This document shows positions 4,784-46,385 of a stretch of DNA of 64,000 nt, piece by piece. This DNA is from Perna viridis (lineage: Eukaryota): contig CM074513.1 of NCBI GenBank assembly GCA_037379345.1, forward strand, positions 40,234,885 to 40,298,884, in the 5' to 3' direction. Below the pieces are notes generated by a model that did no database searches, was not told where the DNA came from, and saw only the letters and a program-made list of their open reading frames with translations. How positions within the stretch are numbered: position 1 is the first letter of the stretch; every line of letters starts with the position of its first letter. Both the position numbers and the translations under genes were made by a program.

Positions 4784-6020
4784 TTCATTTTATTTCCATC
4801 CGCTCCAAGTTAAATAATGGAAAACTGTCACTTGAATAAAAAAGGAATCACTTAGAATTACTAAAAATTTATATAATATGAACATGTATGATATAGGAAA
4901 GCATTAAAAAAATAATATAATGTTCTAATAGTCCCCATGTTAAATTATAACGATAAAATGGCGTTAATATTTCAATTATATTAACATGTCAATAAAATTA
5001 AAATAATGAATATTATTACGCGTAAGACATGACTTAAACAGAAAACAACGATTTAACATATAATGGCGTGGTCTGATTTCAGTTCTGCTGTTTGCTCAGC
5101 CGAAGTAGCTTAGCTTATCTTATGTCGATTGCTCTATATCATATTTACACTTTTCCTTTAATATTTGAATATAAACATGAGTCATGACAATTGACTTTCG
5201 TTTTTGTGGAAAATTTAATTCCCCATCATAAGTAACTTATTATCAAATTGGCCTTTTTTTCGATATGTTTTCATAAGAATTTAATATGTACATTTAGACC
5301 CACATGTAAATTTGCAATTACATATCTTATAGAAGAAAATAACTTACAATTACATTCATAACGTTTTTAAGTTATACTTCCTATTTCCTAAAATAGTTTA
5401 TAAACTTTATACGTGACGTCATAGCTTATTATATATGGTTTACTCACAAGCTTTTCAAAATATTTCTTCGAATTTTAGTGAAATATGAAAGAGGGCAACC
5501 ATTTCAAAATTTAAGGCACCAACATTATAAATATTGGTACGTTGAACTGATTGTGTTAGACTGCTTTAAAATTGAGATAGGCCACCGAACTTCATCTTGA
5601 CATAACTAGTGTTGAAGCATTTTATTTAAAGATATAGGGATATATTTTTTCAAACTAAACGAATTATTTCCATACATTCATGAATAAATTATGAAAAAGA
5701 ATTGTTATATCACATAATTTCATGACTGCAAAAGAAATTATGTTGATCTTATAAACAAATATTACCAGTACAAATATATAGTGCCGAATACATTAATATC
5801 TCTTTTGCAAAAAGTTTATATATTTTGTTTATCTTTTGGTAATTGTAATCCTACATGTTTTATGTTTTGTACGTCATTTATCGTACTATCTAGATGACAG
5901 GTGCGTAAGAAATTGCCACATTGAGGGTTGAAAAAAACAAATGTATTCTGCTGTGCTACTATTACGATTAAGAAATAAACTTTCCAAATATTTGATTCTA
6001 ATGCTGCTGATGAGAAAGGG

Positions 6021-6720
6021 TAATCAAGGGAACCAATATTCTAGCGGAAATCAAAAGAATGTAATCCAGGGACATAGATTAGACATGGAAAACAGACACA
6101 CACAACAAAGAACATAAAATAACCAGAATAATATGTACAAAGCAACAAAAGTACATGAGCAACTCGGACTCCACCAAAAATTGGGGGCATGGAGCAGGTG
6201 CACCTGTAGGGTTAGTTCCGAGCTGCTCATAAAAAGTCAAGTCCTATGTAGACGGATGAGGAAAGGAAAACTACGACACGTTGAACAAGTCGATTCTCAT
6301 GGTGCATATAGATACACTGTAACGCTCCATAAAACGTCTGTGGTGATGATTTCAATCTTGTAATAACATAATCCTGTTCCAAAAGCCTTATTGTTAGAAG
6401 TCGTGCGCGGTACTAAAAGTCTGCATTAGTAGTACAAATCCAGTTTTGTTAAAGGCTTTGTACACTGGGACAACACATTTCTCATGAAAGTAGCAAATAC
6501 AAATTCTGGCATAGCGTATGAGTTGTGATATGAATACCCCATATGCAGGTCCTTGAAGGATATTGCCACAGATGAAAGGAAAGTGGAGGATACGGAATCA
6601 AAAGTCATTTGCCGTATAGTTTGGTCAATAGTTTTTTCTTTACCATTGATCTCTTAGTGTAGGTAAAATTATGAGGCAGTGTCTGTAGTATCCTTTGTCT
6701 CAAGTACTTCGGGCTAGATG
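6021..6720 (-). mobile_element. Decayed Penelope-like retroelement: RT C-terminal remnant plus 3' tail
   Basis: Frameshifted minus-strand remnants resemble the PLE RT thumb (KDTTDT...KLY.K.DDFD....FPFICGNI...AYGVFISQLIRYAR...TRLKSS.Q.F). They are followed by the AATCAAGGGAACC-type tail seen at many other sites. Confidence 0.7.
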
Positions 6721-9634
6721 CGATGTATAATTATTCTTTGAAAACTGGGTACAGTGTTGCAATATCTATATGATTTGTATGATTTGTTTTTTATTCAACA
6801 TTAGTAGTACAAATTCAGTTTTGTTAAAGGCTTTGTACACTGGGACAATACATTTCTCATGAAGGGAGCAAATACACTTTGAAGCGTCTTTGCCAATGAA
6901 TACAGACTTAGGTCTATCAGTCCTCCAGTGTTGCAGGTTTAAAATATGACCGTTCTACTGAATACTTAGCTGCTTTTACCCATCAAGACAATGAGTCAAT
7001 TTCTTGTTCTTATATAGGCTCTTGAATAACCATAGACTGCATCCATGATTTTTTAACTATGGTGCCAGTTTATTTGTTACTGTTATCTGAACTTCGAGGG
7101 TTAAGAGGTATGCCTCTTTTTGTTAGTACTGTGATGTTTGTTTATAGTTGAAAATTTAACAGGCAAATTGTGTTATTGTAACTGTAGGAGATTAATAGGA
7201 AATGATTGATTTTTTAAATAAGACAGTATTTTTTTCATTATTTTTTTTCGTATAGAATTTTGCTGATGTTGATCAAAACGATACCTTTATTTTCGAATGT
7301 ATAATAAGTATACGTTGAAATTCGGATATTTTAAATACCAGTTAAAAGAAAGGAACAAAGGAATTATGAAATTTAAGTATGGTTCTGTCTAAAAACCAAG
7401 TGTTAATATCTCAAATGGACAACTTTCATTTAAATTTTTATAATTGAATACAGTTTGTATGAGGCCTTCTCAAGGATTTCAAATAAAACATATTTGGTAT
7501 TTAAAAATTCATAAATCACTTATTATAAGCTTCTGTCTGGCTTTAAGGCAGAGCTACACTTAAGATTTCTATAAAAGGTGTATGAAAATTCATCCACATA
7601 TCACACAGTCTCTGTATTTAGTCTAACTCATCCCCAAGGAATTCATCCAAATAGTTTTGAAGATAATCGTCTGCTGCTCTTAGCATTTGTCGCAGATTGT
7701 GAAGCGCGAGAATGTTAATGTTAGTCGTAATTTTCTGTTCATGATCGATGTTTTTTATTGGAAGAACCGTATAAGGTGTTAGTCGAAGAGCATGCGCCAA
7801 TTTTTCAGCTCTTTCCTTGACTTCTTGACTGTGGAATACTGTGGAAAGATCTCCTTTAACCGATTCAGATATACCGTCGATTTTGTTCATCAAAATAAGC
7901 TGAGGAATGCCTAAATAATACAAAAAATTATAAACAAAGCAATACCTCTTATAATTTTTTTATCCAAGATTAATAAGAAATATAGTATTTTGTTTGAAGC
8001 ACACATTCAGTTTTAATGGATTATAATGTATCATATTCAGCATAGTTTGAAGGCAATTAGACTTCATATATTTTCTAAGAGTTTAATGTATTCATTAGAG
8101 TGGCGTATGCAATTTCTGTCAAGGATACGTCAAGATTTCGTAGACGGACAGACGTAAAAGGTACAAAAATGTTCTTGTTTTACATATTTCTGAAAAAATA
8201 ATAATATTTTACCTTTGAGATTCATCAAATCTTGTATTTTCTTTATTTGTTCATGCACGTGTTCTGTCGTAGGATAGTCAGGATCGTTATTAGCATCAAC
8301 AACAAGAGCTACACAATGAATTCTGTCATGCATCTTAGGGTCCCTTCTGTAGTATGGATTTTCTTTAGTGATATGCATTTTGTCTGTAAACTACAAGTAT
8401 GGTGTCAAAACATCTTATTCAAACGTCGTGTTATGTTGTTGTTTATAATTTTTCCCCAATTTTCCTTTCATAACAACATAAACGCATACCAGGAAATTTT
8501 GCTAAATGTTTTAAAAGAAAATTATCGAACGTTTTAAGTTAAAGTTGAGAGACTTTGGGCTTTCCGAAATTTTTATATAAAAGTATATACATATACATAA
8601 ACAAACAAATGTATAATCATAAATTACTTTATTCTCTCTTCACATAAGTTTTCCGTTATGCATAATAATAATTTCTCATCTCAACGAACTTCGACAACTC
8701 AAAGTTTAATATAGGGGATGACTTTTGACTACTAGAATTCAACCCCATTTATTATGAACTATAATTGTATTCTCCTTTAACCTGAACAAATACATTTTCT
8801 CTAAAACTGTGAATAAATATTCCGAATTTGTTTACAAAATTGCGACCCCTCTGAATATCAAAAAGTCCTTGGCTTTGAACTTAATGTTTTCCAAAGAACT
8901 CGCATGTCATGGTTAATATAATGCATATGCAAAACAATGTGCTTATACTGAAGAAGTTTGCAAATGTATTTATATGCCCAATAGGACAAAGCAACCTGCA
9001 ATGAATGTGTGTCTTCTAATCAGTATATTCCTTTAAAGGAAAAATTAGAATTAAAATAATACAGATCATCTCGAAAAGTTTACATATACAGAGCTGTATC
9101 ATTTACCATGTATTTATTCTTTACATGTCCATCAAGGATGCATTCTATATCATTCAGCTCTCTACGCCTTGAGCATCTTCAAATCCTTTGCAGTCACATA
9201 TTCTAAATTTCAATCTTTTCCCGTTTGAGACTATTGGATAAACATTGAACTACAAAAAGGAATATGATAAAGACTTCACCAAAATTAAGCAAGTAAAAGA
9301 AATCATTTGGTTTTGGTAAAAAGTTATAGACTTGTTACAATTCAGGTGCCTCGAGTAGGTTGTATTTCAAAAAAATATCAAATGAAATGCGTTGCTTTTT
9401 GAAATACGGGCTAATTATTTAAACGAAGGTGGCGCGAATTACAATGACTGAACATGAATGAAGCACTCACAAGATATCATCAAACTTAAATAGAGACTGG
9501 AATTCACAATCAAATAATGCGTTAAGTTTATCGTAAAGTTAAGGTGAAAAACAACATGTGTGAATATGTTTAAAACAACCAATGCCATATCTAGCGTGTG
9601 TCAAAATGGTGTTACAAGAAATAAAGCAGCTCAC

Positions 9635-9847
9635 CGCTTTTGTAAGACTCGTATCAGAACTGCCTGCACGTGCTTGAATCGAGAGTCTTCCACGGAAGAA
9701 GGAATTAATGGTGTTAAAGAAACTTGACTTTCCTGCACCAACAGGACCAATTAACAGTATATTGACATATTGAATAGCATTTTCGGCGACTCCCATTTCT
9801 TTAAGTGGCCAGTATTCGTCGATTTCTTTTTTGATACTCTGAAGCAA
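9635..9847 (-). CDS. IFI44L: IFI44-like P-loop exon
   Basis: Walker A GPVGAGKSS; cag| acceptor and |gtgag donor; 71 codons. Confidence 0.9.
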
Positions 9848-10929
9848 CTGAATAAAACAAATATTTAATAAATTACTTGATTACTAAACAAAAGGTGATA
9901 TGTACATTGCTGAAGATGGATCATGCCTGGTTAAATCAACAACAGTCCTTCATCATAAAGATCTTGGAAATTTGATTTTTCTAGCTACTAGATTTCATTG
10001 ATAATCATTTGCATGATAGTCTAAATAAAATGTAATTTGCGTGATTATGTACAAATATTAATCATATGATAAATCGATTCAATCATTTTTGTTAACAATA
10101 TAATTTTGTAAGTAGAAACATACAAATATCATATCTAAATGATGCGGAGTCATACTTCATTACATTTTGCACATTTAGGTTACATTAGGCAATTGTTACC
10201 TGGATGCTGGAAAATGTCAGATGACGTTCTACAAAAAATATTCTGAAATTTCCAAGAAGACCTGATTTTATTATAAGGCGGGATATATCGCTTTTTTTGG
10301 AAAATTATTCCACAAAGGAGTAAAATAACCGTAGCAAAAGTACAAGGATTTATGAGCAGATCAGAGTGTTACAAATGTCATTATAGAAAAAAATTCATTT
10401 TTTTTATTTCGCTGTTTGATTCTAAAATATTAATGTAGATGATACCTGTAACACTATTTACGAAAAAAAATATATACCGTGACCTTTTTCAGAATTTTAG
10501 AAGTTAATAGAGGTTTTTGCGCCTAAACCTTGTTTGACCACCTTTGAGTAATGACAGATACAACTACTTTGTTAATGCCATGATAAAATGTACAGAATAC
10601 TTATTTTTCTATTTAAGGAATCGTACAGGAGCCAACCACGGCTTTTATACTTCGAGGTTATGGACAAACCGTTCTTCGAATTAGAGTTTTCCGAGTCAAG
10701 TAAAACAAAATATCCTGAGGGTATGGGGTCTATCATCACACATTGATCGTTGATGTTTTTTTCCATGACCTGATCACATTTCCCTTCGAAAGGATCAGAG
10801 ATTAATTGAAGAACGAAAGTAATAATAAAAAAAACATTGTTTTAGTAAGGGTTTCAATACTGCTAAATAAATTGTTACCTCGGCGTTCCAAACAGGAAAA
10901 TCAAGTTCTCTCCAAGGTCTCACCATTTA

Positions 10930-11396
10930 GGTTACAGACCACCAATTCAACCAATGAGCATTCGGAACGTACGCAAAAATAGTCCTACGCAGAAATTACC
11001 CCTGTTCCTCATAGTGCTGTGAAAAAAGTTCTCATCTCATTTAAAAAATTTAAACAGTTTCTGAAAGGAAAAACATTTCTGTACATTTTATATGTGCATT
11101 TTGCTTCTTGTGATGTGAAGCCTAATCTCCATAATGATTTCTAAATATACCCTTATCTTGTGAAAACACTGGGATTTCCCATGCTATTTATAGACACTTC
11201 ACTTCCGGTGACCAGTACTGCACTGCAAGTCTGCTAACCCCACATGCCATTCTGAGGATTGTGAGCTGACATATGTAGAATCATGCTGATATATAGTCAT
11301 CTGCAGGTTAAAGTTAAGGTAAAGTCCAGAGAAGCCATTGAATATTGTGAAATTAGCATAGAAGCCTATGGGAAGTGGAATTAGTGGTTTTTAGCC
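10930..11396 (+). repeat. Long terminal direct repeat 1 (467 bp)
   Basis: Matches 12271-12737. Confidence 0.95.
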
Positions 11397-12270
11397 TTAA
11401 GCAGAGGACATGGCAAAATGATAAGTTTCTTGGAATAGCTTTAAACTACTTGGAGATCTTGTAAACTTTGCTATGAGAGGAATACACTACAAAAATCCTT
11501 CAAAATATGCATTTTTTTAAGTTATTGGTCCAAATTATGGAAAATTGGTCTTTTTGGCTGAATTTTATGTCCTATCTTGTGAAAAGTGTAGAAAATTTAA
11601 TGAAAATATCAAATATTTAACTTTGAGGGCTATATTTACTTAAATATGGTGGTAATCAGCACTTGAAATCAAGTTTTGTGTAAATTTGAGCAAAAATTTG
11701 ATTAGAAATGAGGAAAAACTCACTTTCATTACTGCGGTTAAGGACATATAAGCATTTCCCTATGACAACATGGAAAATGCAGTTTTGAGTACTTTTTTTG
11801 CTTTAGGTGCCCTTTACTTGTCATGTTTTATTGTGAAAACACTGTATTTACAAATTTAAAGCCAAAGATATCACCTTTTGCGAAAATTTAAAGAATTAGG
11901 GTTTTTGACATGTGATCAAGAAAAAGGGGGAGGCATGTCAGACATAAATTTTTAAAAATAGACTAATTTTTCAGAAAATGACTACTTTTAAAGGCTATCT
12001 CTTTATTAATATTGTAAGAAAACAAGTTGTGATTGATTTTTTTTATTTGAAAAGTCAGAAAAAGTTCTTTGCAAATATTAAATGCATTTAAGTATGGTAG
12101 AATATTGTCACTTTTTTGCTCGCGCAACTTGGTTACCCTATATTTAAAAATCAAATATTTAAAAAAGTGCTTGTCACATTTCACTGAAACTTTGCAAATG
12201 CATTCAGTATGTGTATAGGAAGATACTTGTGTAGTTATTTATTTTTTCTAAGACAGAAAGTGACTCTTTA

Positions 12271-12737
12271 GGTTACAGACCACCAATTCAACCAATGAGC
12301 ATTCGGAACGTACGCAAAAATAGTCCTACGCAGAAATTACCCCTGTTCCTCATAGTGCTGTGAAAAAAGTTCTCATCTCATTTAAAAAATTTAAACAGTT
12401 TCTGAAAGGAAAAACATTTCTGTACATTTTATATGTGCATTTTGCTTCTTGTGATGTGAAGCCTAATCTCCATAATGATTTCTAAATATACCCTTATCTT
12501 GTGAAAACACTGGGATTTCCCATGCTATTTATAGACACTTCACTTCCGGTGACCAGTACTGCACTGCAAGTCTGCTAACCCCACATGCCATTCTGAGGAT
12601 TGTGAGCTGACATATGTAGAATCATGCTGATATATAGTCATCTGCAGGTTAAAGTTAAGGTAAAGTCCAGAGAAGCCATTGAATATTGTGAAATTAGCAT
12701 AGAAGCCTATGGGAAGTGGAATTAGTGGTTTTTAGCC
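12271..12737 (+). repeat. Long terminal direct repeat 2 (467 bp)
   Basis: Matches 10930-11396. Confidence 0.95.
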
Positions 12738-13009
12738 TTAAGGTTTCTTCTGTTACATCTGTTAAATTAATCAAAGGAAAGTATTTGTCATAAATGATTT
12801 TATGCATGATATCGTTATTGCATTTAAGTACAAAGCCATATCAAATTCAAATACTCCCAAATATTAGTTGTGCAGAAACCCCACCAAACAATCGATGTGT
12901 TTTTTCAATCTAAACACACTATATTGTTATGTAACTATGGTTCTTTCTGACCACAGATGTGTATTTTTTTTTGTAGGGGGGGGGGGGCACTCATTCATTT
13001 CTCAATTAA

Positions 13010-13221
13010 GGAGGTAGACTTAGGGTAAGGGACAAAATTCATAAAATTAAGGTTATGTTTGTATCATATTCAATTTCACCAAAGCCTTCCAAGCTTTCAT
13101 TTGAAACAGAATGAAATTAATCCAAGTTACTTTGGTGCTTACATGAGATTGAAGTAAAATGCTTAATATAAACGTTCCAATTATTTGTAAGAGTTGAGTC
13201 CCTTACCTTAGGTCTGCCTCC
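13010..13221. mobile_element. TTAA-flanked MITE, 212 bp (Kolobok-like termini)
   Basis: 24-bp TIR GGAGGTAGACTTAGGGTAAGGGAC / GTCCCTTACCTTAGGTCTGCCTCC (21/24 match); TTAA at 13006-13009 and 13222-13225. Confidence 0.85.
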
Positions 13222-14305: not shown

Positions 14306-14831
14306 CTTCTACTGCGTACACCTGCACATCCAAAGCCTCAAACGTCCCATTTGTCAAAGCTGTTGCGGTTTCTTGGCTCCACTGATAACTTTCAGGAGTC
14401 ATTGCGCTATTAAGAGGTAAGCCAGTCGTCCCCTTTGTGATAGTATCTTTGAATACCATGAGGTCTGGTCCATTTCCAAAAACGGGTCCACATGTAGTGT
14501 TCATCATAAGTGCATTTTCAGGAATTCTAACAGAAAATTTACCCGCGTTTTGCATCGTTCCTCTTTCAAGAACAAACAAGAATGCGTCGGCGTCATAGAC
14601 AGATTCACCACTACCAGGCATCCAGCTAACTCGTGCATATCCACCATAAACATTGCCGTTACTGTGGAACACAAGTGTCAACGTCGGGCCCTTGTTATTA
14701 CAATTTTGGTGAAAAGTTGCAGCAGAGCATTCCTGTTCGGAGGCGGAAAACAAACGCGTATATCTCTTTTTTCTTCCCCCAATCCACGCTGAAATCAATA
14801 CTTGTTCACGGAATGTTAATTCGTTCGCCAT
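14306..14831 (-). CDS. IFI44L: IFI44-like first coding exon (TLDc domain)
   Basis: Open frame with an AG acceptor directly before the ATG at 14831 and a GT donor at 14305; TLDc motifs present. Confidence 0.9.
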
Positions 14832-15238: not shown

Positions 15239-15484
15239 TGTGGAATTAGGTAAAACTACAAAGAAAGTGCATATGATTGTGTCAGTGCCGTTTTTTTAAT
15301 TGTTTGCTCCCGTACCCAGTTATACGTGGAATTTAAAAAAGTGATATTTGGTTTTAAAATATAACCAAAATTAGAAAAATAAAAGAAGAAGTAACAGATA
15401 AGAGATGGCTCCCACCATGTCCCCACATTCATAGATGACAATTCCATGTTTTCCTATATGAAACCCTATATTGATTCTGACCAT

Positions 15485-15965
15485 TTTTTTATATTAGAAA
15501 ATATTTTTTTAATATTAGAAATTCATTTTGTAATATTAAAATTCATTTTCTCATATTACAATTTCCTTGTTTAGTAATATTATAAAATATCACACATTTT
15601 GTGATATTACAAATTGAATTTGTATATATAAGAAAATGAATTTGTAATATTAAAAAAATCACTTTGCAATATTGCAAAACCAGTCACATTTTTTAATATT
15701 AAAAATGATTTTCTAATATTAAAAAAAAACGCAATTTGAGTACAAGAAATCCATTTTCTAGTATTAGAAAATCAATTTCTAATATTAAAAAAATCAATTT
15801 GGAATATTAGAAATTCAATTGATTTTTTAATATAAAAAATGATTTTTTTAATATTAAAAATGGGTTTTGTAACATTAGAAATAGAATTTATAATATTAAA
15901 AAATGAATTTGTAATATTAAAAAATCATTTTTAATATTAGAAAACACTCATCATTGTAATATATT
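15485..15965. repeat. Degenerate AT-rich tandem array, unit ~21-22 bp built on TAATATTA(G/A)AA
   Basis: About 20 recurrences of the AATATTA core at roughly regular spacing. Confidence 0.8.
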
Positions 15966-16876
15966 TTTAGATATAATGACATTAAGCCTACTTTACCACT
16001 GCATTATTTAAAAACTAATAAAAATAAATAAATAAAAAATAAAATAAAAAAAATATAATATAAATTTGAAGGTGCAAAATGAGAATATGAAAAAAAAGAT
16101 TCCGTGAAAATATCAATGGATTCCATTCAGTGATGCAAAAGCAGTTACAGATACGAGATGGGTAACCCAGTGTCAGGGAATGACAAAGTCCATATTTTGC
16201 TAATGTGCGACCTCAAAAACATTCACATCAAAATCAAATATAAGGAGTGCACAATTGGAAGGAATAGAATGGACACCCTATCAATATATACAAATGTATC
16301 CCCACTTTCATACCCCACTTTCCAATTTAAAGGTGTAAAACAAGGACAGTGGTATTTTATACGCACCTTTCAACCATCGGTATATAACTTCCTACTTTCG
16401 TTATGCAAAGAAGGGTCGATTGTGACGTGATGCGGAAATGGAACCGAGTTTGTAGGGAATATTATAATTATCATTGCGCATGTTCGAAAGCTATTTTCAC
16501 TTTGACTGCATGAAGAACTTTAAGAAGCGGGCAATTTAATTGTAAAAAAAAAACCAAACAAGTAAGTTTGACGGCTTTTATACCCAATTATTTTTTATAT
16601 TTAATGAGAAGGATCAAAAGATAATAATGGGTGACCATCATTTTCATTAAATACATTTGGGTTGTGAATTTCCAACTTGAAATTTATTTGACTGAATTGT
16701 GAATATCATTTTCCCCTCCGACAGAGATTTATGGGAGCAACATAATAGATGTTCATTCATGTACAGATTCAACTCTTCGTTTAACAACACTTGTATATAC
16801 ATTTAAAGTTTTTTTAAAGGGTATGTCCAGCACTGCCACTGGTGATACCATTGATGAGGACATTCCATGATGCGAC

Positions 16877-19800
16877 TTGTTCATTAAACACACAAACCCT
16901 TACTATGGATGGGTGAAAGATCTGGAGACGGCTAATTCGGTTGTGGAGGAATTTTCTTTAGCTACCTCCACAACTTATGCAGAACCAAGAACTACCAAAA
17001 GTTTGGGAAAATTTTCCCTTAATGTTGAGGCATATTGTTTTGTAAATAAATATCCTTTTCCATATTTTCTTCTCAATGTGCAATTTATTTTTGTCAGAAG
17101 ATCTATTGCTGTGATTTATTTTGTAAATGAACATTGGTGTTGATTGTTCTGACTAATCTCTTTTTGATGGTTGAAGGTGGAAGGGAGGGAAAATAGAAAG
17201 GTCAAAAAGATGTAGCATTTTTGAAAACATAACTGAGATGATACTTAAATCCAAATACATATGTTTATTTGTAATTCTCTCATTGTTTAATTTTATTTCA
17301 GAACAATGCTTAGTGCAGCATTTTGTGCGCTGGGAAGATGATGGTGCTGTCACTCATGGCTCACACATTCCTGTACAGGATACCCCTTTCTTCATCGTTG
17401 GTAAGACAATATTTATCCTTTATGCATAAACTGATACAAAGATTTTGTAATCAAACAGTAGTGCATATAGTAAGTACTCATTTCTTATATACAGTGTGTA
17501 TTTTTTCTTGTTTTAGGTATTTTATCACTTTATAAATATTTTTTTTCAGTACCAGTACATGTATATCATCAGTATAAGATTTTTAATTTTAAATGTCTAT
17601 AAAGTTGTTTTATCATAATTATAAACAAGCAATGTATTAACTAAAAATATTTGTTCAAATATAAGAGAGTTACTTTTAATTTCAATCAACTTGATATCAT
17701 AAGAGGATGCACTCTGTTTATTGGTAGTGGCCTACCCTGCTAAGTGTGGAAAATCATTGGTGAAGTGATAGGCAATGCCATAAATGTGGAGATCGTTGGT
17801 TTGATATCAGACCTCATCACACCAAAGACTTTAAAAATGGTAGGTTCTGCATGCAGCTTTGTGAGGTGAAGTGATGACTGATTAAAGTAAAAAATTGTTT
17901 CTGAGTGTGGTAACTTGCCTTTCTTTGGGTTATTGCTTTTTTGAGCTAGTCCAGCACAGTTTGTCTAGTAAAAAGCTGAGTCTTGATTTGTACGAATGTT
18001 TTCGTACTAAAAATAACTAATAATCTGGCTACTACTTACATGTGAACCTGAAGAAGTAGAAGGTATGTAATATGTAATACTGTGACAAAAATGTATTATC
18101 TATCTAAAGATGTGTGATTTATATTTCAGTGGATGAGGGATTTTTTCAACTTGAAGTAGACCAAAAAGAACAGATGAACTTGCTATAAATGCTTTTGAGG
18201 ATCTTATGAAGTGTCTTACAAATCAAGGTGAGAACTATAAAACTTCTAATTTTTTTTTATTGCCAAATTTATCTTTAAAAGGTATTTCAGCAATTGTTTG
18301 GAGTGAATTTGGTAGCACATTTTTGTCATATGACATTAATATAATATTGCATAAAATATTGCGGTAGACATGTTTTGAAAAGCATTAGTGAAGAAAGATA
18401 CGGGTTAAGAATATCCAATATTTTATAGGATATCTTGGATTCTTGACTCCTTAAATTTGTGAAATGGGTTATGTTTTCATCTGTTCAGTGGCTGTTTATG
18501 TTTTAACTCAACAATGAAAAGTAATTTTGATCATTTGTTGCAATTTTTTTATTAGAATGTCACTGTTCTGTTCATATACTGCAAAATGATGTATGTATGA
18601 TGAATAAGTAACCGGTTACATGATATTGATAATGATTTTTATTTCCTTTCTAGACATAAATGATACACACCAGGAATGTAATCTTGAAGATGTAGAATGT
18701 AAGATACAGAGGTGATGTATGTCATTTATAAGCTCTTATACTTTGTTGTTTTATTTGCATTAAGATTTGTTTCAGAAAAATTAACAAATTATCTTCAATG
18801 TAAATTTGAACCATTAATTTCACTTATATCCTTCATTTATAGTTATTCTGATTTGTTTTTAGGGAATTTCATAAAAGACTTGAAATGTGATGGACTTCTA
18901 AAAACCTCCCCATACATGTTGTACAAAAAACAGATCAGTTAGGTATGATGTTGGTGGTGAAACTTTAGAGGGGAAAGATCTGAGCACATTACAAGGCTCC
19001 AGTTGGCTTAATGATAAGGTAAATGTATATTCCCTTGCAGAGTAGTGTTACATTCGTAGTATATATTCAGCAGAGGAAATCTTTCTGAAAGGAGTGCAGT
19101 GATATGTAGAAGTAGGACTTATAAATCTTTATACTTTTGGCTGCAAAGGTTATGTGTTTATGCAGAATCATTTCTGTCTGATGCAGTTGTTATATTTTCA
19201 ATTTTTACCCTTTGACCTTAAAGACGCTCTTCCATGGAAACGCAAGTTACCTGATCGCAATTCTGTTTCCCCATTGGCCAAATACTGATAACTTAGTGGC
19301 TTTCAAAAAAAAATGTAGCGAAATTGTGTGTCGTGTTATTTTCTGAATGAAATGTAGAAAATTAATAATAAGGAGAAAGATCAAAATTTTATCGTGTTTT
19401 TAAAAAGTGAAAACAATTTAGAACAAGAGGGTCATATTTTCGCTCTGCCATCATATATGGCAGTCCTTTGGGAGCCAAAACGGTTCGATACTTGGTTTTA
19501 CAGTAAGGTAAGTATTTCATTTTTACAACATGTATTATTTTAAAATTTTAAGATAATGACTACGAGTTATGCAGATATATTAACTGCCAGTTACCAAATG
19601 AAACAAAGAAAAATATTTTGTATGTAACAGTTACTGGTTAAGTGCAACGGAAGTCATGGAAGGCAAAACTTATGTTTTCTATTCCAGCGATGACAGCACC
19701 TACAAACTTCACTTATGTTTTCTGATAAGTTAATTTCAACTTGAACCCCTTATGCTCGGTCAATGATATTTGGTGTGCAGATGCATTACCATCATTTCAT

Positions 19801-22658
19801 CACAAATTCATGCCAATTTTAGGAATAAACTCCACAGTCATGGTCTGTTGAAAATTCAATGTTAAAGTTTCATGTTGTTTTGCATTTATAACACACATGC
19901 TGAATTATATTTGGTTCTTGTAGGTTAAATTCGCAAGATACACTTGCATTTTCGTGCCAATCAACAAGTGTCAAAACCACTGGATATTACTGGCAGCAAA
20001 TATTCCATGTAAATCAGTATCAATACTGGATTCCATGAATGGGAACAATGACAAATATGTACAACATTGGAGGTAATTCAATTAATTATCAGTGAAAATG
20101 AATGAAAATCAAATAAATCTTTATTATGCATTTCCTTTAACACAACACCCTCATATAAGTGCATTTTACCAATGTTTTCCATGAATTATGAACCAAAAAA
20201 ACTAAGGGAAATAATGAATTATCCATTGAAAAAAATGAAAAACATGTGAAAATTTAAATAATCTTTAATGCAACTGATACATGTTCTGAATTAAAACATA
20301 ATTAATTTTCATTATGTAAAGTGTTTTATTTAGATATAGAAGGTAACTCTTAATGGATTTTGAATAAGGATCTCATAAATTTTATCTTTAAAATATATAA
20401 TATACTATTATATTTGTTTATTTTATGTTCTACCAACTGTTTGAGGGATACTTACTTTTTAAACAGGCATGCATCTAATACAGGACTGATTATGCTGTAC
20501 TGTTGCCCATTAGGCCCTTGTAAAAAATGACACCAATTTTCTTGAAACTATGCTGAATTGAATATCACATTAAAGACATACAAATTTTCATGAATTTTGG
20601 TCTCTATAAGTTTTGTAAAAATATGTCCATGTGATCAGGCATATCACATCTACTGTAGCACAGATATGTAACATATGAATGACAGTCTTAGTTGGTTCTC
20701 ACCTAACACTTTTGGGTCAACAGCCACATCCCTCTTTCAATGTAGTATCAAGAACACACAAGACTAGTTCTATGCATTGTATAATGTAAGTGCATATGAT
20801 GTTTGTATGTTGATCACATTAATCATAATAAAGCTGAGAATGTGTATTTGTAATTTAGTACAAAGTGTATGAATATTGTGTGATTAATTTGTCTCCATGC
20901 TTCAGATAGCAGGCAATGTAAAAATGTGGATTTTCAATATTATTATTTATTCAAGCTAAATATCTGAGAAAAAAAATTAATGATCATCCTACCTTTAGTA
21001 TACTGATTTTGAAAGCCCTTTTCCCAAGCTTTGCAGTGGTTGCAACTTAACCCTTGTCATGCTACGCCTGGATCTGTTCGGGATTGGACCTGGTTCTGCT
21101 TTATCGCTTCTGGCAATGTAAATCTTAGTTTAGGAAAGTGCATTTTGTGACCATCTGCTAGCAGTGTGACTGTGCTTTAAAATGAGGCTATCTGATATAT
21201 AGTTTGTTAATAAATAAAGACTTGAAAGCTAAAAGAGGAGGTCACAAGTTTCCACTGTCGAAAAAAAAATGAGATTTTGTTGGTGGTAGGGTTCATTTCT
21301 TGGCCCCTTGCCAGAGCAGAATTGATCTGTAGTACTCTATTTTGCCTGGAAACTAAATAAGAGTGATTTTTGTTGCCACCATTTGGATGTCAATCCCTTG
21401 TATTGACTACTACCGGTTTTAGGACAGAGGCAAAAAATTGGAAAAAATCCTCATTTTTTCACAACTCGTGACCGTAACACATTTTATTTGGCTTCAGTAG
21501 CCTTCACAATCTACAGGCTGTAGGATGAATGTGCTTTGGTTCCTGATTCGTTCCAGTTGAACCACACAAGTTCCAGTTGAACCACACAGGTAGCAAATAA
21601 TGACCAGAGATGGACAAAACTGACAAGTGACAGACCAATTTTCAGCATAACAAGCATTAAAGGTGTCATTTGTACTGAGACATTTATTTCATTTTTTTCA
21701 TTTTCATGTACTTGCATTTGTATTATAACTAACAAGAACATTTTGCAGGAACTACATGAAAATAAGAGGTGAGAAAATAAAAGATGATATTGATGCTAAT
21801 TGGAAGAGTGGAAATTTAAAATCTAGTCAAAAAAAAGATGGCCATAGCTGTGGACTGTTTATACTTATGGTAAATATAACCATGATATGATTTACACATG
21901 CAGATAAATTCTTCTTGGGTGCCAGTTTATTAGTGTTTTGTGTAGAGTATGGAACAATGAAACAAAGAATGCCCCAACAAAAATCTGTGTACAATAGGTT
22001 TGATATTTTGACTTAGATGTTTAGTCCTGTTAAATTTTAGGTTAAGGACAGAGGACATAATAATGTACATAACTATTAACATTCTTCACCATATTGATTT
22101 TTTAATTGTGCCCTTCCCATTAAGAACTGGCTCAGTGTGTTGGTTAGTATTCATTTATTATGTTTATGATCTTGTCCTTAATATGCATCTGACCTGTCAC
22201 TGAACATTAAGCAATCAATCAATTCAGAAAAAGGCTGAGTCAAATGTATAAGTATGGAATATAACAAATTAAGCATAAAAACAATTAACAATGAACACAG
22301 TACTAAACGCAACCACTGACAGCTTCAGACCTGAATTAATCCGAAGAGAATGTCTTGCTATATTAATTGTACAATTTATGTTTCATAATGCACTAGCTTT
22401 AACCAAGGGTATTCAACCAATGCAATTGACCCAAAAGGCTGCTCTGGTAATCAGAGAATATGTCACAAAGAAAATCATAAAAACATCTAGAAAACCAAAG
22501 GCACAGACGACAATTTGTGACATGCTTGATTGTCAAAAGCCAATTAAAGATGCATGGGTGCAGTGTGTGGCCGATGGCTGCACTTCAAATGCATTGGACT
22601 GAACAAAGTGCCAAGAAATGATTATGTGTGTATTGTTTGTGAATCACAATATAGATAG
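16877..22658 (+). pseudogene. Decayed spliced CaRF-like / Ulp1 (C48) SUMO protease / PHD finger gene, probably transposon-associated; exons ~16877-17006, 17302-17400, 18130-18227, 18654-18711, 18863-19018, 19924-20072, 21749-21869, 22387-22658
   Basis: Ulp1 motifs DLSTLQGSSWLND, IFVPINKCQNHWILL...ILDSM, Q.KDGHSCGLFIL. PHD finger CDMLDC...WVQC../WLHFKCIGL...YVCIVC contains a frameshift. The last acceptor reads CAT instead of CAG. The N-terminal exons (GWVKDLETANSVVEEFSLATSTTY; IPVQDTPFFIVG) recall CaRF-like domains. Confidence 0.8.
17757..17985 (+). mobile_element. Degenerate tRNA-head SINE remnant in an intron
   Basis: Decayed A-box-like and B-box-like head followed by CACACCAAAGACTTTAAAAATGGTAG, a body motif I recognise from mollusc SINEs. 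Confidence 0.45.
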
Positions 22659-25047
22659 TTATACCCCATGCATAGAAGAGCCTGTCCATCCTTAAGTGTG
22701 TAATAGTGTGTTGTTGCCTGGAGAGTGCCTTCATTTGTTGAATGTTTTTTCTTCAAACTTTGTTGAATGATTAGTTAACTGTAACAGCTGGATATAATTT
22801 ACTTTCCATTTATCTTGTCACATTTTGAGAGGGTCAGGCTTGCGTTTTCAAAAAAGTGCAAGTGTTGTGATGTGGGGTATTGAGAGGGAGGTATCTAAGG
22901 TTCTGATTGGGTTGTTGCCTTTTAGACACATTCCCCATTCCCATTGTTTATGAATTGTACTTATTTAAAGCTGTTATCAAAAACATGCATTTACAGATTT
23001 TCAATATGAGTCCTTGAGATTATGAGTTTCTACATGAATAGTGATTGTTAACAAACCATCAACAGACTGTTTGTGTTAAAAGTATTTCAACATGGATTTG
23101 AACTGAAAATTAATAAACTATAGAGTTTTGTTTGCCTCTATGCATTAGTAGCAACAATTTTTTAATACATTTTGTTATTTTGATAAAAAAAAAAGGCATT
23201 GATGAGATTTTCGCGCTAATTTATTTTGAACATTATTTACAATTAGCTATAGTCAAGCTTTATAATTAATAAAAAGGGTTTCAGTATTAAAGTTATAATA
23301 GTTTTTTGGTTGCCCCATGGTTTTAAATTTTATGAAATACTAATTTCACAAATTTAATCCCTGTGTTCATTGATCAAACTTTATCCTTTTAAAGAGATGT
23401 TATCATATTTAGTATCTTTCTTCTGTAGGAATCACATTTATGTTTATTGAATTGTATTATTTGGTTCCTTAAGGTCATCAGTTATCGTACCATTTGCTAG
23501 AATTAGTCTTTTCTACAATTTAACAATGTTATGAAATTTTAGAAATTAATTGTACAATATTCAAAGATATGCAGGAAAATGCATTCAAAAGATAATAACA
23601 CAGAGTTTTTTCAGGCCAATTGCTATCTTATTGTAGGTAATGATTTTTTTTATGCATAAAATGCATATATATATTTTCCTGTTCGTTACTCATTTGTACC
23701 AAAATAAAAACCAATGAAGAGTGAATAAAATTAGTATTCGTACACAGTATTTCTGTTCTTTTTATATTCGCATAGCATGAAAGTTTGGGATAGACATGAG
23801 TTCAACATTATGCTCCTTTGCCTAGCACCATGGACATAAAAACAAAGGTCAATCAAAAGTTCTTCATAGAAAAGTTAATACTAGAAGGCAGTACCAATCA
23901 AAACCAAGCGAAACAAGGACTCATAAAATCAAGACATTAACAGCAGTTGAAACTAACACAAAAAGATACAGCACAAATGCCACTAAATAAAAGGAGTGAA
24001 ATCAGAAAGGTATTGGCAATGTCTTTGCTCAGTCCAGTAAAGGTGAAAAGTTACTAAAGGCTGAGCAAGGAAGAATATCAGATACAATTTCTGAAATGCT
24101 TTAGTCATGATGGCAACATGACATTTCTCGAATGCTGACTTTAATTTGACTGATTCATACCCTGTCTAAGCAACTTTTAAGAAAGCATAATTTCTCTCTC
24201 AACAAAATCAATGTTCTTAGAACTTAAACTCTTAAGTAATGCATCAGTTGAGACACATATACTCCATAGGCTGGTTTTGCTGGTATGTTGCTACTCAAAA
24301 GTCAAAAGTTAACTATAAAAAATTAGACAACATGTGTTTGCCAATATTCTCAGGTGTCTGTTAAATGTTGACATTAGTTTCATAAACAAGATTAAATTAT
24401 TAATAAATATAAATTCTAAAAGATAAAACATGTTTGACAAAAAGTATAGTTTTCGTACATTTTGTACATGTAAAAAATATATATGCCAGTGTGAATTATG
24501 ACATGACATTTTTCTCCATATCATATCGCATTTTTGTACGTTATTTTCCTCTGAAATTATTTTGTGGTATTCAGTTCCTTTCTAATTATTTTGTGGTAAT
24601 TAGTTCCTTTTAAATCAAAATTGAAAGTAAGTTTAGCGCATGCGGGCAATAATGACTTCCGCTTCACAATCGACGCCGTCGATTACTTGTCGCTAGTTTT
24701 ACCGAAGCGGATGTTCTTTTAAACGTCTACTTTTTGGAAATTGTATGTAGTTTGAAACGGATATTTATGTAAAAAAAGACGTTCAGAGCTGGTAATGGGA
24801 CAAAATAATGCCAAAGATGACAGGGAGGGGAGAATCAATGCTGCAATAGATAACTTAGAAGTACGTTATGTTATTTTTGATGAATGCGTTCATGTTTATC
24901 TTTTATAGACTAGTTTTTAAATATTTTAAAATTTCACAGTTTTGATACTTAGTGCTGTTCGTATTTATGTTTGTTTACATTTTATGTTGTACGTTTTTCT
25001 TCTCGTGGTTTGCAAGTAAAAAGTAAAGAGACCATGATTTGAACGAA

Positions 25048-25340
25048 GGAGTAATCAAGGGAACCAAGGTTATAGCGGTTATCAAAAGAATGTAATCCAG
25101 GGACAAAGACCAGACATGGAAAACAGACATACATTGATACACAACAAAGAACATAAAAGTAACTAAAACCATACAAAAAAAGTAACAAAAGCAAATGAGC
25201 AACTCTGACTCTGGGAGCATGGACCAGGTGCACCGGTAGGGTAAGGGTCCTCTGCTTTTCTAGAAACACCCGCCGAGTTGCTCATAAAAAGTCAAGTCCC
25301 GGGTAGACAAACGAGGAAAGGAAAACTATGACCCGTTGAA
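25048..25340 (-). mobile_element. Penelope-like element 3'-end fragment
   Basis: GAGTAATCAAGGGAACCAAGGTTATAGCG... tail plus the ATGAGCAACTC...GAGTTGCTCAT stem; same family as 6021. Confidence 0.75.
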
Positions 25341-25345
25341 TAAAT

Positions 25346-25848
25346 TAGATTGATTGATTGATTGTTGGGGTTGAACGTCCAAGCAGCAATATTTCAGCTA
25401 TATTCAGACGATGAACATGAAATGGATGATAAAATGAACATGAAATGATGATAAAATGAAAAAGGGATGGGACACAAAGATAATGGGGTCGACAAATTTT
25501 GATTGCCACTGGAAATAGGGAGAGGTGGGTAGGGTCGGGCAATTTAGCCTCCTGTGGTGGAGCCATATGGTTCCTACTCCGGGAGAATACCACAGTAGGT
25601 TTCTTTAACATGCGAGGAACGTGGCATCTTTCCCAACACGGTGCACCACTATGGTTTGCGGTCAGGTTTTCCGCATTATAGCCTGACAACCCCAGCATGT
25701 AACACGCCAGGGGTACCCCATTCCAGTTGCTCTGTGGGCAGAGCGCCCTAGCCCTTGGCTAGGGTTCTGAGCGCTATTTAGTCGCCTTTCACGACAAGCT
25801 TAGCGCTGCTGCAGGCCTATTCTTTTAACACCCGGACCTACACGGGGC
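25346..25848 (-). mobile_element. ~500-bp SINE-like retroelement, copy 1, (CAAT)n tail, ~20-bp internal deletion
   Basis: Highly similar to the copies at 32298, 56735 and 60892; no clear TSD. Confidence 0.9.
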
Positions 25849-25879
25849 GAAAAGATCAGTTTTCAGTTTTTTATGGCGC

Positions 25880-28580: not shown

Positions 28581-31301
28581 ATGGTTGAAAGTGCAAAGTG
28601 CAAACTGAAGGATTCGACCATTATGATTGAGAACATAGAAAAAGAAGTACATACAATAAAGAAGGAAAAAGAACATTTTCGAGAGATGATACTTAGTAGG
28701 GAAGGCAATATCCAAAACCCTAATTTGAATTCTAAAGGATTTCATCTTCAAAACAGAAGTTCTTTATCTACTGCTTTAATAACAGATACTGTAGAAAGCG
28801 ACGGAACAATAAGGAGTGCCATACTTACCAGTTATGAAATATCAAAAGAAATACAAGTAAAAGAAACACAACATAAGGATTTAGAAATGAACATAGATCA
28901 ATTAAAAGACAAAAGTAAATTAAGTCTTGGGATGATTGAAGAACAATCGGCAGAAACAGACCGACTTCGTCTAGATTTGTCCAATTTACGGTGTGAAAAC
29001 AAAAAATTGCAAGAAAAATTGCAAGAAAAATTGCAAGAAAAACAGTTAGAATTGGAAACGATTGTCCAAAATGAAAAGACCCGCTATCAGGAACTCCTTT
29101 CAAAATATAAAAACGCTGAGGCCAAAACCGAAGATATGAAAATCAGATTGAATAAGTATGAAACTGACTTAGCGTTGAAGGAAACCCAGTATGAGTACTT
29201 GGAAAGTACGATTCCTATTACATAAATTTGTATCTGTCTGTCCAACCATTACAAGATATTTTTTCTTTATTCTCGGTTACACTCTTGTAAGGTTTTAATG
29301 CTACTAACCAGAGTGCTCCGAATGAGTTAAGTCTACATTGTTAAAAGTATGATTAATTATGAGATGAAACACAATAAAAAACGTGTAAAAAGCATCCATA
29401 TCGTAATGCAATCAAAAGAAAACAAAAAATCTAAAATACACAAATGAAAAAAGGACGTTATTTAAACATTATTCAGAATGGATACATACTTGTGTAACAT
29501 TTAATCACTCACTTCTGAGGTGACTGATGACAGACTATGGAAAACATAATTTTCTAAGTGGATATCATATTGATCAAAAAACGTTTATGCTTTAGCAGGC
29601 TTAATATTGTTAAAAAGACCAAAGCCTACATAAAATACATGATACTTATATACCATTCATTTTATAACTGATATCGATTTTCTTATACAGACTCTGTAAA
29701 TGCAGAATTAAATGCACTGAGAACCGAAAAGGAAAAGTCAAAACAAAAAGTTCAAAGAAGTAAGTAACACCATTATTAAGTATGGTAAATTTGTTTGGAA
29801 AACTGAAATAGTTGAAAATCTCATCCATTAGCAATAATAGTTCGACTATGAAGACTTAAAAAAGGCAAGAATGATATGCGTTAATGGACAAAACAATAAT
29901 AAAACAACAATTTTGTTTTATTTATTTTGTGCAAGATAATTTTTGCCATATTATGAATTATACAGGCGAGAACAACTAAAACAGCCAAAATGCACGTCAA
30001 TTAAAATAGCCAGTTAATAGTCTTTCTGATAGAAACAGTTTTCCAAATGTAACTATTTCAACCGTGTTAAAGATACCAAAAAGCAAAAATCCTTGATTAA
30101 CGAATTTATTGTGGACTTGACTTGATAATGGATTAGTGTTTGATAATTTTGTTGTTACCCATATTTACGCTTTCGGTGTAGGAAGTCTTGGGTAACAGTA
30201 AATCAAATTATATTTTTTAAATAAAGTTATTAGTTTAAAGACAAGCTTTACGTTCATTACAGAGATTGCCTTTCGTTGTGTCTTAAAAAACCCACAATCC
30301 GACCAGGCCATTTCCGGCATAGTATCTTTACTGCAAGAGAAGTTATCAAACATTGATTTAGTAATCATACCAGAGTCGTCTCGAAGCAAAGATATTCCCT
30401 TAATTGTTATCTTCTATCACCTGTCAAGAGTCACAGACGATGCTAAAGGTGCTCTAAGTGGACTAGATGGTATAGATTTTATATTTAGTTTTCTAGACAA
30501 AAGTCGTCAACGTTACAACGTTTGAACATAGAGGACTTTTATTTGTTCTCGAACTAGTATTTATTTATGTACTAGTGAAAGAGTAATCAAGGGAACCAAG
30601 GTTATAGCAGTAATCAAAAGAATATAATACAGGGACAAAGACCAGACATGGAAAACAGATATACACAACAAAGAATATAAAGAAAGTAAAAAAAAATACA
30701 TACAAAATAACAAATGCCAATGGGCAACTCGGACTCCACTAAAAACTGGGATCATGGACCAGGTGCACCGGTAGGGTAAGCGTCCTCTGCTTTTCTAGAA
30801 ACACCCGCCGAGTTGCTCATAAAAACTCAAGAAAAGAATGTTAGCAGCTAATTGTTGATATAAATCAATATAGTAATGTCCTCGCTATGTGGATAGAAAA
30901 TAACTGCGCGTTTTGATAACCAAATCTAAATATAAATAATATTTGTGAGCCCTTTTTCTTTCTACAAGAACAAAGTTAGGCTTATGTGTGTCTTTTTGTA
31001 AACCAATACATGTGAGCGATATATATATGATGCATCAACTCTCACAATTAACTAATATAGTAAGTAAAATGTAGTCGAAATTATTTTTTCAGCTTCTCCG
31101 GACATAGCTCTTGTAGCTTTACACCCAAAGAGGGAATTACAATCCAGCCATGAAGCGAAAAAAATGCTTGCTGCCCCGGAATTTAAAAGACTTGGAGTTA
31201 TAGTAGACATCAGTTTTCTTTCTGCGAATGGAATAATACAAAATGAATTAACTTCAACGGCTGTGGATCAATTAATTCAATTTATAAACAATTTCGAATA
31301 G
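28581..31301 (+). CDS. Spliced uncharacterised gene: long coiled coil plus C-terminal alpha/beta domain; exons ~28578-29205, 29691-29759, 30263-30469, 31093-31301; 5' end uncertain
   Basis: Three phase-1 GT-AG introns join in frame: ...YEYLE-NSVNAELNALRTEKEKSKQKVQR-KIAFRCVL...PLIVIFYHLSRVTDDAKGALSGLD-ASPDIALVALHPK...IVDISF...QFINNFE*. Confidence 0.75.
30577..30830 (-). mobile_element. Penelope-like 3'-end fragment (intronic)
   Basis: Family tail and stem-loop present. Confidence 0.75.
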
Positions 31302-32297: not shown

Positions 32298-32805
32298 GCC
32301 CCGTGCAGGCCCGGGTGTTAAAAGAATAGGCCTGCAGCAGCGCTAAGCTTGTCGTATAAGGTGACTAAATAGTGCTCAGAAACCTAGCCGGGGGCTAGGC
32401 GCTCTGCCTACAGAGCAACTGGGATGGGTGCCCCAGGTGGTGGAAAGGGGTATCCCTGGCGTGTTGCATGCTGGGGTTGTCAGGCTATAATACGGAAAAC
32501 CTGACCGCAAACCATAGTGGTGCACCGTGTTGGGAAAGATGCCACATTCTTCGCACGTGAAAGAACCCTGCTGTGGTATTCGATAGGAGTAGGAACCTTT
32601 GCGCTCCGCCACAGGAGGCTTAATCGCCCGACCTTACCCATCCCCCCTTTTTCCAGTGGCAATCAAAATTTGTCGACCCTATTATCCTTGTGATCCATCC
32701 CTTTTTTTCATTTCATGTTCATTTTATCATCCATTTCATGTTCATTGTCTGAATATAGCTGAAATATTGCTGCTCGGACGTTAAACCCCAACAAACAAAC
32801 AAACA
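32298..32805 (+). mobile_element. SINE-like retroelement copy 2, full length, 14-bp TSD
   Basis: Starts GCCCCGTGCAGG and ends GGACGTTAAACCCCAA(CAAA)n; TSD TCCAATTAAAT(C/A)TG at 32284-32297 and 32806-32819. Confidence 0.92.
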
Positions 32806-33169
32806 TCCAATTAAATATGGGAAAATACTAATGAGATCTACATCGTTTAGGAGGAGTGAGAGAAAGAAAGAAGGTAGATTTTTACCATACCTGACCCCCA
32901 TTCCACATTGAAAATAATTACGTGCATTATGATCTGGTACAAGTTTATATGATTCATGAATATTGGATTTGATAATCACTATAAATAATTTCTATACATT
33001 ATTCGATTTTGACTAATACTATATCCAATATAATTTCGCCATGAACCATATCTTTCTAAAGATTTATTGGGCACCTTTTCGAAATCAAAGAATGCATAGT
33101 ACAATTTTCTTATTCCATGGTTGAAGAATTACAAAAAATATAATAAATCAGTAGTGGAATATACCAATA

Positions 33170-33326
33170 NNNNNNNNNNNNNNNNNNNNNNNNNNNNNNN
33201 NNNNNNNNNNNNNNNNNNNNNNNNNNNNNNNNNNNNNNNNNNNNNNNNNNNNNNNNNNNNNNNNNNNNNNNNNNNNNNNNNNNNNNNNNNNNNNNNNNNN
33301 NNNNNNNNNNNNNNNNNNNNNNNNNN
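33170..33326. other. Assembly gap (157 N)
   Basis: Run of n. Confidence 0.99.
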
Positions 33327-33992
33327 TTCTTTGATAATCAATGAACTCCCTGACAATTTAATAGGTCTATCAAAATGGGTGTAAAAAGTTTGCATAAAAC
33401 AATATGCTAGAACAATATAATTAGAAAAAAAATGAAGGGCCAGTATTTTTATTTTTGAGATAGAAGCATTTGAAATTTTGTCGGGAAAAGGATTTTTTTT
33501 AGTTTCCATACGTTTTGTTTTAGTAGGTTTTATGTATCAAAAGCACCGAAAAAATAACGATGATATCATAAAAACTAATCCAATAACATTTAAAGGTGTG
33601 TTAAATGACATTTCTGAAAGAAAAGTGAGGGTCACTGGGCAAAACCTATTAATACTATGAAATGAATAAAATAAGAAGAGTAAGAAAAACTGACAAAAAT
33701 GACTGAACATGAGCAGAGAAAATCCTTTGAAAGTATCTTGTGTAGAAGGTGTTCTTGATAATGACATGAAAATACATTTTAGAACCAAAAAAAAAAAAAA
33801 TACCAAAAACAAAAACGAACAAACAAAAAAAAAAACAAACAAAAACAAAACAACGCTGGCAACAAAATTTCAGGAAGATTTTGCCTACGATAAGTATCAT
33901 TAGTCACACAGAAGTTGTCTAATGGCTTTAAGATATTTGCAAAAAAATAACTCGCTTGACCCATATCGGTGAAAAAACCGGACGTGACATTT

Positions 33993-34238
33993 TATGAGCA
34001 ACTCGGAGGGTGATTCTAGAAAATCGGATGACGCTTACCCTACCAGTTTACCTGGTCCATTCTCCCAGTTTTTAGTAGAGCCAGAGTCGCTCGTTTACTT
34101 TTGTTTCTTTTTTACATGTTATTTTGGTTATTTCATGTTCTTTGTTGTGTGTGTCTATTTTTCATGTCTAGGCTCTATTCTGGAATATGTTTTTTTTTCT
34201 GATTTCCGCTCGAACCTTGGTTCCATTGAATACTCTTT
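33993..34238 (+). mobile_element. Penelope-like 3'-end fragment, opposite orientation
   Basis: ATGAGCAACTCGG...GACGCTTACCCTACC...CCTTGGTTCCATTGAATACTCTTT. Confidence 0.7.
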
Positions 34239-34506
34239 CAGCAAGTACATTCTAAATATAACCACCCATTCTATGTGCATTCAAAAAAGTAAATAAAAAT
34301 AATAGCAACGCAATAAGTGCATTTATATCTTATGATTGACAGAAATTGGGCTGCTTAAATTTCGGTAATTACAAAATCGTCTGAACGTTATGCGATTAGC
34401 GGATACACTCTGATTGACATTTTCATAAAAGAAAATGAATTACCACGCTTAAAACGTCCTTCCAAAAATTAAAATTGCATTTTTCTTTGGGAATGTTCAT
34501 CAAGTT

Positions 34507-39269: not shown

Positions 39270-39441
39270 TAATCCAGGGACAAAGACCAGACATGGAAAA
39301 CAAACACGACAAAGAACACGAAGTAACTAAATTTATACATACAAAGTAACTAAAGTAAATAGGAAACTCGGACTCTACTAAAAACTGGAAACATGGACCA
39401 GGTGCATCGGTAGGGTAAGCGTCCTCTTCTTTTTTAGAAAC
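39270..39441 (-). mobile_element. Penelope-like 3'-end fragment
   Basis: AATCCAGGGACAAAGACCAGACATGG...GGACCAGGTGCATCGGTAGGGTAAGCGTCC. Confidence 0.7.
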
Positions 39442-45760: not shown

Positions 45761-46117
45761 GAAGCTGGAGATCTGTTGAGTAGAAAAAAAAACTTTGAAA
45801 AAATATTCCAAGTTAGTAAAATAACTTAAATATAAATTTGGTTCATTTGAAACCAAAAGTACATAAAAAGTACAATTTGAAAGAAGAAAACAAAAAACCA
45901 AACGAATACAAAGCAGAATATGATGCTGAATTAAAACGTTTATATGACAAAGCATACTCACAGAGAGATGCCCAAATCTGGCAGGAAGATCTGCTTCAGA
46001 GAAGTTTATAGGGTATATCAGACCATAGTGCTTGAGTGTATCCAGAAGTAGTAAAGGCATCTAAAATCATTGAAGAAGCTGTGCAAGAAGTTATAACACG
46101 TACATATAAACCAAGGA

Positions 46118-46385
46118 AAGAGTAAACAAGGGAACCAAGGTTATAGCGGTAATCAAAAGAATTACAGGGACAAAGACCAGACATGGAAAACAGACATACA
46201 CAACAAAGAACATAAAGTAACTAAAATCATACATACATACACCGTAACGATCCACGAGTTCACGATGACGATCACAACACTTCTGTATTGATGACTTCAA
46301 TCTTGTAACAATATCACCCTGTTCCAGAAGCTTATTTGTTTGAATTCTAGCCTGATACAAAAGCTCTAGCATAAAGTAAGACAAA
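46118..46385 (-). mobile_element. Penelope-like fragment: RT C-terminus fused directly to the 3' tail
   Basis: NKLLEQGDIVTRLKSSIQKCCDRHRELVDRYGV runs straight into the tail; the stem-loop segment is missing. Confidence 0.75.

Follow-up and report, generated by a model that had tools for sequence, protein, structure and literature searches.

PiggyBac DNA transposons are characterized by YY..RR (CC..GG) termini and a TTAA target duplication. Another architecture, LTDR-INT-LTDR, in which direct repeats (LTDRs) enclose an internal part (INT), has been described for KolobokP by Kojima and Bao (2022; PMC9587614), whose families, including non-autonomous ones, have LTDRs of approximately 450 or 660 bp and RR..YY ends. 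According to the same source, solo repeats and multimers are frequent, target duplications measure 3-5 bp (3 bp in several families) with no strong target preference reported for the documented families, and excision mostly deletes 1-5 flanking bases on one side. The insertions published there include imperfect 4-bp flanks (judged by eye), and in several KolobokP-1_MeMe rows of Figure S3 the right flank starts with the INT 4-mer while the left flank differs (by eye, uncounted). With regard to the host side, IFI44 is among the OsHV-1-induced effectors of oyster (PMC4955271), and interferon-inducible GTPases are named among the families enriched in dispensable mussel genes, IFI44 itself being unnamed in the main text of that study (PMC7653742). 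It is commonplace for multicopy immune genes to be knocked out by transposons.

The window analyzed here, the whole 64,000-nt stretch of DNA from a scaffolded assembly (157-N run at 33170-33326), contains a six-exon gene on the minus strand (Table 1). Its N-terminal TLDc domain and C-terminal P-loop GTPase domain (G1, G3 and G4 motifs) are those of an IFI44-like gene, and its frame is interrupted by a stop at codon 197 with the transposon described below and at codon 301 without it. Exons 1, 3, 5 and 6 are open with canonical splice sites and the three GTPase motifs are intact, which argues that loss of the gene was recent. When exon 3 was used as the query in a word-limited search, 201 homologues were recovered from 274 candidates; among the best 120 of these 201, many are IFI44-like by name and none exceeds 85% identity. 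The gene is 62-69% identical to six mussel-type proteins, four of which are named Mytilus records, which makes a mytilid the probable source of the DNA; those six are 69-82% identical among themselves. In an 18-row tree, the gene and the six proteins group in one starred clade; its sister is a Pinctada protein, and most proteins with an IFI44-like name fall elsewhere. Comparison with solved structures gave a single weak TLDc match, for the homologue P0001. A word-limited search among proteins of 313-2000 aa (eight hits, 467 candidates) for an intact ortholog of this locus, or a protein derived from its transcript, returned none above 58% identity, and tblastn with eight homologues matched the window only at 7.6-14.8 kb (E<1), revealing no paralogue in it.

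Among shorter proteins (97-312 aa; 15 hits, 68 candidates, word-limited), one 99% hit was obtained, P0009, which corresponds to exon 1 with read-through into the intron and shares 178 of 180 residues with the window product; this near-identity indicates that a second allele or a close relative exists, be it with or without the element. At position 34, P0009 and all eight homologues have Gly and the window gene has Glu, a substitution at an invariant position that, from sequence comparison, lends weak support to decay of the window allele; the other difference, at position 53, favours neither allele. Invariant columns are broken in 40 of 248 cases in the window gene versus 2-16 in the homologues; as no other row of the alignment is so divergent, this count is left out of the case for decay.

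Table 1. Coordinates of the gene, the inserted element and a dispersed repeat in the 64,000-nt window
Feature	Position	Strand	Description
Exon 1	14306-14831	-	526 nt; TLDc; phase-1 GT donor; Pfam PF07534, E=3.6e-14
Exon 2, 5' part	12738-12758	-	21 nt; AG acceptor; 3' end is the target TTAA (12741-12738)
Left LTDR	12271-12737	-	467 bp with GG..CC termini and an imperfect inverted repeat of its own
INT	11397-12270	-	874 bp; non-coding; TAAA start, TTAA end; AATAAA at 12243, 12047, 12007 and 11832
Right LTDR	10930-11396	-	467 bp; identical to left LTDR
Right flank TAAA	10926-10929	-	One mismatch to left TTAA; same as first four bases of INT
Exon 2, 3' part	10879-10925	-	47 nt; conserved PWR motif; phase-0 GT donor; tblastn E=0.038 with P0001
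Exon 3	9635-9847	-	213 nt; P-loop (G1 motif)
Exon 4	9107-9249	-	143 nt; +2 frameshift; in-frame TGA; split tblastn match
Exon 5	8213-8390	-	178 nt; open
Exon 6	7618-7910	-	293 nt; G4 motif; stop codon
Dispersed repeat, 150-300 bp	6014-6288, 25045-25343, 30567-30831, 33980-34250, 39254-39442, 46113-46241, 55198-55411, 62544-62720		

Several further features were recorded across the window. Approximately 650 bp upstream of the start codon, a palindromic AT-rich 21-bp minisatellite with long inverted repeats (15482-15944) might form the central part of a foldback-type element. Exon-like open frames on the plus strand between 16871 and 22602 (16871-17143, ~17300-17430 and 22279-22602, the last with a cysteine-rich end) may be parts of an adjacent gene or of a different transposon; Pfam searches with three pieces of these frames gave no match. 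A 182-bp segment at 1742-2101 is present in two exact head-to-tail copies, reflecting either a recent duplication or an assembly artefact. Repetitive sequences include at least eight copies of the dispersed repeat (73-93% identical) and four copies of a GC-richer 500-bp repeat (25343-25853, 32298-32812, 56731-57256 and 60893-61399; 85-96% identical), which looks SINE-like and carries a short microsatellite tail on one side; Rfam at gathering thresholds returned no match in the window, this repeat included. Short open frames at 46400-51100, which include a CCHC zinc knuckle and stretches reminiscent of reverse transcriptase and integrase, may represent a decayed LTR retrotransposon.

Exon 2 of the gene is interrupted on the minus strand by an element of 1,808 bp (12737-10930), whose direct repeats, already described as identical in the original prediction, match at 100% over 476 nt with the flanks included, the repeats proper being 467 bp long. 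The inverted ends of each LTDR are imperfect, with 14/18 and 15/20 matches, and the latter value was reached by only 1 of 20,000 random 467-nt segments of the window. A repeat start at 12738 was rejected, as it leaves no inverted repeat, which is revealed by the one-base shift to 12737. The LTDR-INT-LTDR layout, LTDRs of the ~450-bp class with inverted repeats of their own, and RR..YY ends are all features of KolobokP, and on these structural grounds the element is classified as a non-autonomous KolobokP DNA transposon. An autonomous KolobokP is ruled out by the 874-bp INT and by the longest stop-free stretch in the element, which spans 91 codons over six frames; an LTR retrotransposon or TRIM is ruled out by GG..CC ends with inverted repeats rather than TG..CA, and piggyBac by RR..YY rather than YY..RR termini. 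The transposase (DDD/E) would have been supplied in trans by an autonomous copy elsewhere in the genome; within the 64,000-nt window, no second copy of the element was found. When four supplements of PMC9587614 were searched for an identical described family, none of three motifs (13-15 nt) matched, and of six shorter motifs, two matched and four were without a match in supplement file 3. The element probably belongs to an undescribed non-autonomous KolobokP family, and a search of the open-access literature found no published account of this insertion. At a distance of 250 bp from this copy, intron 1 also holds a 212-bp miniature element (13010-13221) with GG..CC ends, inverted repeats (20/22) and a perfect TTAA duplication, that is, a canonical Kolobok-type MITE.

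Joining the two parts of exon 2 yields 68 nt, directly preceded by a pyrimidine-rich AG and directly followed by GT. With the phase-1 end of exon 1 at 14306 and the phase-0 start of exon 3 at 9847, a 68-nt exon between them preserves the frame. As a control, 12 AG sites (13050-12738) were combined with 17 GT sites (10925-10600), and an open frame was found in 12 of the 204 joins, among which the 68-nt join ranked first against six homologues (mean score 146.8 versus 131.8 for the next). In a nine-row alignment, the rebuilt exon aligns without gaps to five of the eight homologues; within this segment, five residues are inserted in P0003, and the distant P0007 and P0008 each lack two. The 5' part shares 3-4 of its 7 residues with the six close homologues, and the 3' part 7-8 of its 16. 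These results bear out the original prediction that the transposon lies within a 68-bp coding exon with an AG acceptor, a GT donor and a phase-correct join between the TLDc and GTPase exons; the translation is as given there, and paralogues do contain a contiguous counterpart of the exon, on which that prediction had been made to depend. The partial Mytilus protein P0013 terminates where exon 2 terminates, and in eight products of genomic read-through (P0010-P0012, P0014-P0018) similarity ceases directly past the exon-1 donor position; judged from these proteins, the exon boundaries appear to be common to the gene and its homologues. Word-limited protein searches found no transcript, ortholog or second haplotype across exon 2 or exon 4.

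The insertion had also been assigned to a TTAA site. The left flank is indeed TTAA, but the right flank is TAAA, so that the duplication is imperfect and the predicted join drops TAAA. The flanks can be read as a 4-bp duplication with one mismatch or as a perfect 3-bp duplication (TAA), and both repeats have identical four-base neighbours, since INT starts with TAAA and ends with TTAA. Three empty sites follow from these readings: one that keeps TTAA (68 nt, open frame), one that keeps TAAA (68 nt, stop at codon 182), and one derived from the perfect 3-bp duplication, in which the exon measures 69 nt and meets a stop at codon 191. Because only one of the three is open, the choice among them rests on an assumed working frame, and the claim that the empty site can be recovered from sequence alone needs correcting, in that the duplication by itself does not yield it; it is the reading frame, not a perfect duplication, from which the empty site is deduced. 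The homologues fix the length of exon 2 but not the base: opposite the codon concerned, the six close ones have Ser, Tyr or Phe. By parsimony, TTAA is favoured as the pre-insertion site, because under each of the other two readings a prior lesion must have fallen within these very 4 nt out of 1.4 kb of coding sequence.

It is very unlikely that the gene was dead at this site beforehand, through a stop in a TAAA target or through a 3-bp TAA duplication in a 69-nt exon, and that an open 68-nt exon never existed. Such a history would call for a mutation that preceded the insertion and lay no more than 4 nt from its point, and for an exon length other than the 68 nt fixed by the homologues in the case of the TAA duplication, while imperfect 4-bp flanks are present among published KolobokP insertions (by eye; PMC9587614). 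It would nevertheless suit the perfect TAA duplication, given that several KolobokP families have 3-bp duplications and that KolobokP is not TTAA-specific (PMC9587614), as well as the early stops of both non-TTAA readings and the presence of another lesion in the gene. On the favoured TTAA reading, the TTAA/TAAA mismatch could reflect a point mutation, conversion from the left repeat, or bases brought in by the element. The right TAAA would be a target copy altered at one base, most likely overwritten by the first bases of INT as the element inserted, or else converted from the left repeat at a later time. That KolobokP might carry some four donor-flank bases (here the start of INT) into a new site, overwriting one copy of the target duplication, is a tentative proposal and on balance a doubtful one; the intermediate that it would fit, either circular or with overhangs and excised from a multimer, is put forward with the same hesitation. 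If carry-over is true, this locus would represent a rare readable footprint of the KolobokP pathway, with a coding target revealing the pre-insertion bases independently of the duplication.

As for the transcript, splicing at the normal acceptor would read through exon 2 into the left repeat and reach the stop at codon 197, 41 nt into the left LTDR. Solo-repeat alleles are computed to have the same early stop (codon 197), and skipping of exon 2 is computed to shift the frame and produce a stop within exon 3. No frame-restoring AG that could serve as a rescue acceptor occurs in 11100-10879, which includes the last 170 nt of the element. When one-sided excision footprints of 1-5 nt were modelled, 2 of 10 reopened exon 2. 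Transcripts of the interrupted gene are likely subject to nonsense-mediated decay. A new product, in which transcripts end at an AATAAA of INT and a 196-residue TLDc-only protein escapes this decay while the GTPase exons are free to degenerate, is extremely improbable: although four AATAAA motifs lie in INT downstream of the codon-197 stop, with an open TLDc exon and a frameshifted GTPase half, this motif is common in 68% AT DNA, and the invariant Gly of exon 1 has been lost.

A second lesion is located in exon 4, which comprises 143 nt between canonical splice sites, whereas the homologues need 141, resulting in a +2 frameshift. The two surplus bases belong to the run (AG)3 (9163-9158), beyond which a TGA at 9156-9154 ends the frame at codon 301 of ~472. 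In tblastn, exon 4 is split into two frames at 9160, clearly so with six of the eight homologues and additionally with P0008. Because of this frameshift, removal of the element would not revive the gene: unless an assembly error is involved, the element-free form of the haplotype is still null, truncated within the GTPase domain. The possibility that a +1 at exon 2 compensates for the +2 at exon 4 was rejected, as that combination gives a stop at codon 191. The frameshift, lying in a dinucleotide run, could be an assembly error. However, the two LTDRs show no discrepancy at any of their five homopolymer runs (5-6 nt), which argues mildly against a high local indel error, although read collapse could mimic such agreement.

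The absence of differences between the 467-bp repeats places a 95% upper bound of 0.64% on their divergence. The original prediction took the identical repeats to imply a recent insertion; the insertion is probably young, as this bound suggests. KolobokP repeats would not be reset at insertion, unlike retroviral LTRs, and may be homogenised by conversion or read collapse, and identical repeats would be a less direct clock here than in an LTR retrotransposon. A segregating insertion is plausible, since the bound is lower than the mean heterozygosity of 1.73% reported for M. galloprovincialis (PMC7653742), a figure that may not be that of the source species. The series of empty, solo and full alleles envisaged previously corresponds to published KolobokP behaviour and is not a new property (PMC9587614).

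If the exon-4 frameshift were an assembly error, the insertion would be the sole lesion, and a working empty allele would segregate beside full and solo-repeat nulls. Such a state is compatible with the position of the frameshift in the (AG)3 run, the otherwise intact coding sequence, a divergence bound below a heterozygosity value that may come from another species, and the evidence from P0009 for another exon-1 allele; it is nonetheless unlikely, as no empty allele was seen and the agreement between the LTDRs suggests low indel error, read collapse being the alternative. We consider it probable that the window carries a recently disabled, doubly hit allele or a young pseudogene, in which a KolobokP element has inserted at a TTAA in exon 2 of a TLDc-GTPase IFI44-like gene, whose family turns over quickly in mussels. 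The lesion in exon 4 removes the idea of a reversible on/off switch for a working antiviral gene. Beyond this, the insertion offers a PCR-scorable marker both for gene loss in the kind of immune family that is overrepresented among dispensable genes of mussels and for the formation of KolobokP flanks, and the locus serves as a worked example of an apparently undescribed young KolobokP family in coding sequence of a probable mytilid.

In comparison with known systems, the host gene resembles bivalve IFI44 and IFI44-like genes in domain order and in its G1, G3 and G4 motifs, whereas it differs from the six mussel-type proteins in its two inactivating lesions and greater distance, being either a divergent paralogue or a gene of another mytilid. 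The element shares with TRIMs the identical direct repeats that flank a short non-coding interior and would share the solo repeats that recombination yields, but it ends in GG..CC with 18-20-bp inverted repeats instead of TG..CA. It shares with canonical Kolobok (Kol0) the RR..YY ends and the TTAA at the left flank; however, canonical Kolobok shows a strict TTAA duplication and no long direct repeats, whereas this element has long repeats and a right flank of TAAA. Its total length is near those of KolobokP-N5_CGi (1,738), KolobokP-5N1_OwFu (1,797) and KolobokP-N1_ParEch (1,820) and within the non-autonomous range (PMC9587614), and its termini are closely similar to those of KolobokP-8DR01_CorFlu, its 3' end also being similar to that of KolobokP-1_BaPl (compared by eye rather than by whole-length alignment). 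As in KolobokP families, the ends of INT have the look of a target duplication. Unlike the KolobokP families checked, the element interrupts a coding exon, and the probable sequence before insertion is thereby fixed.
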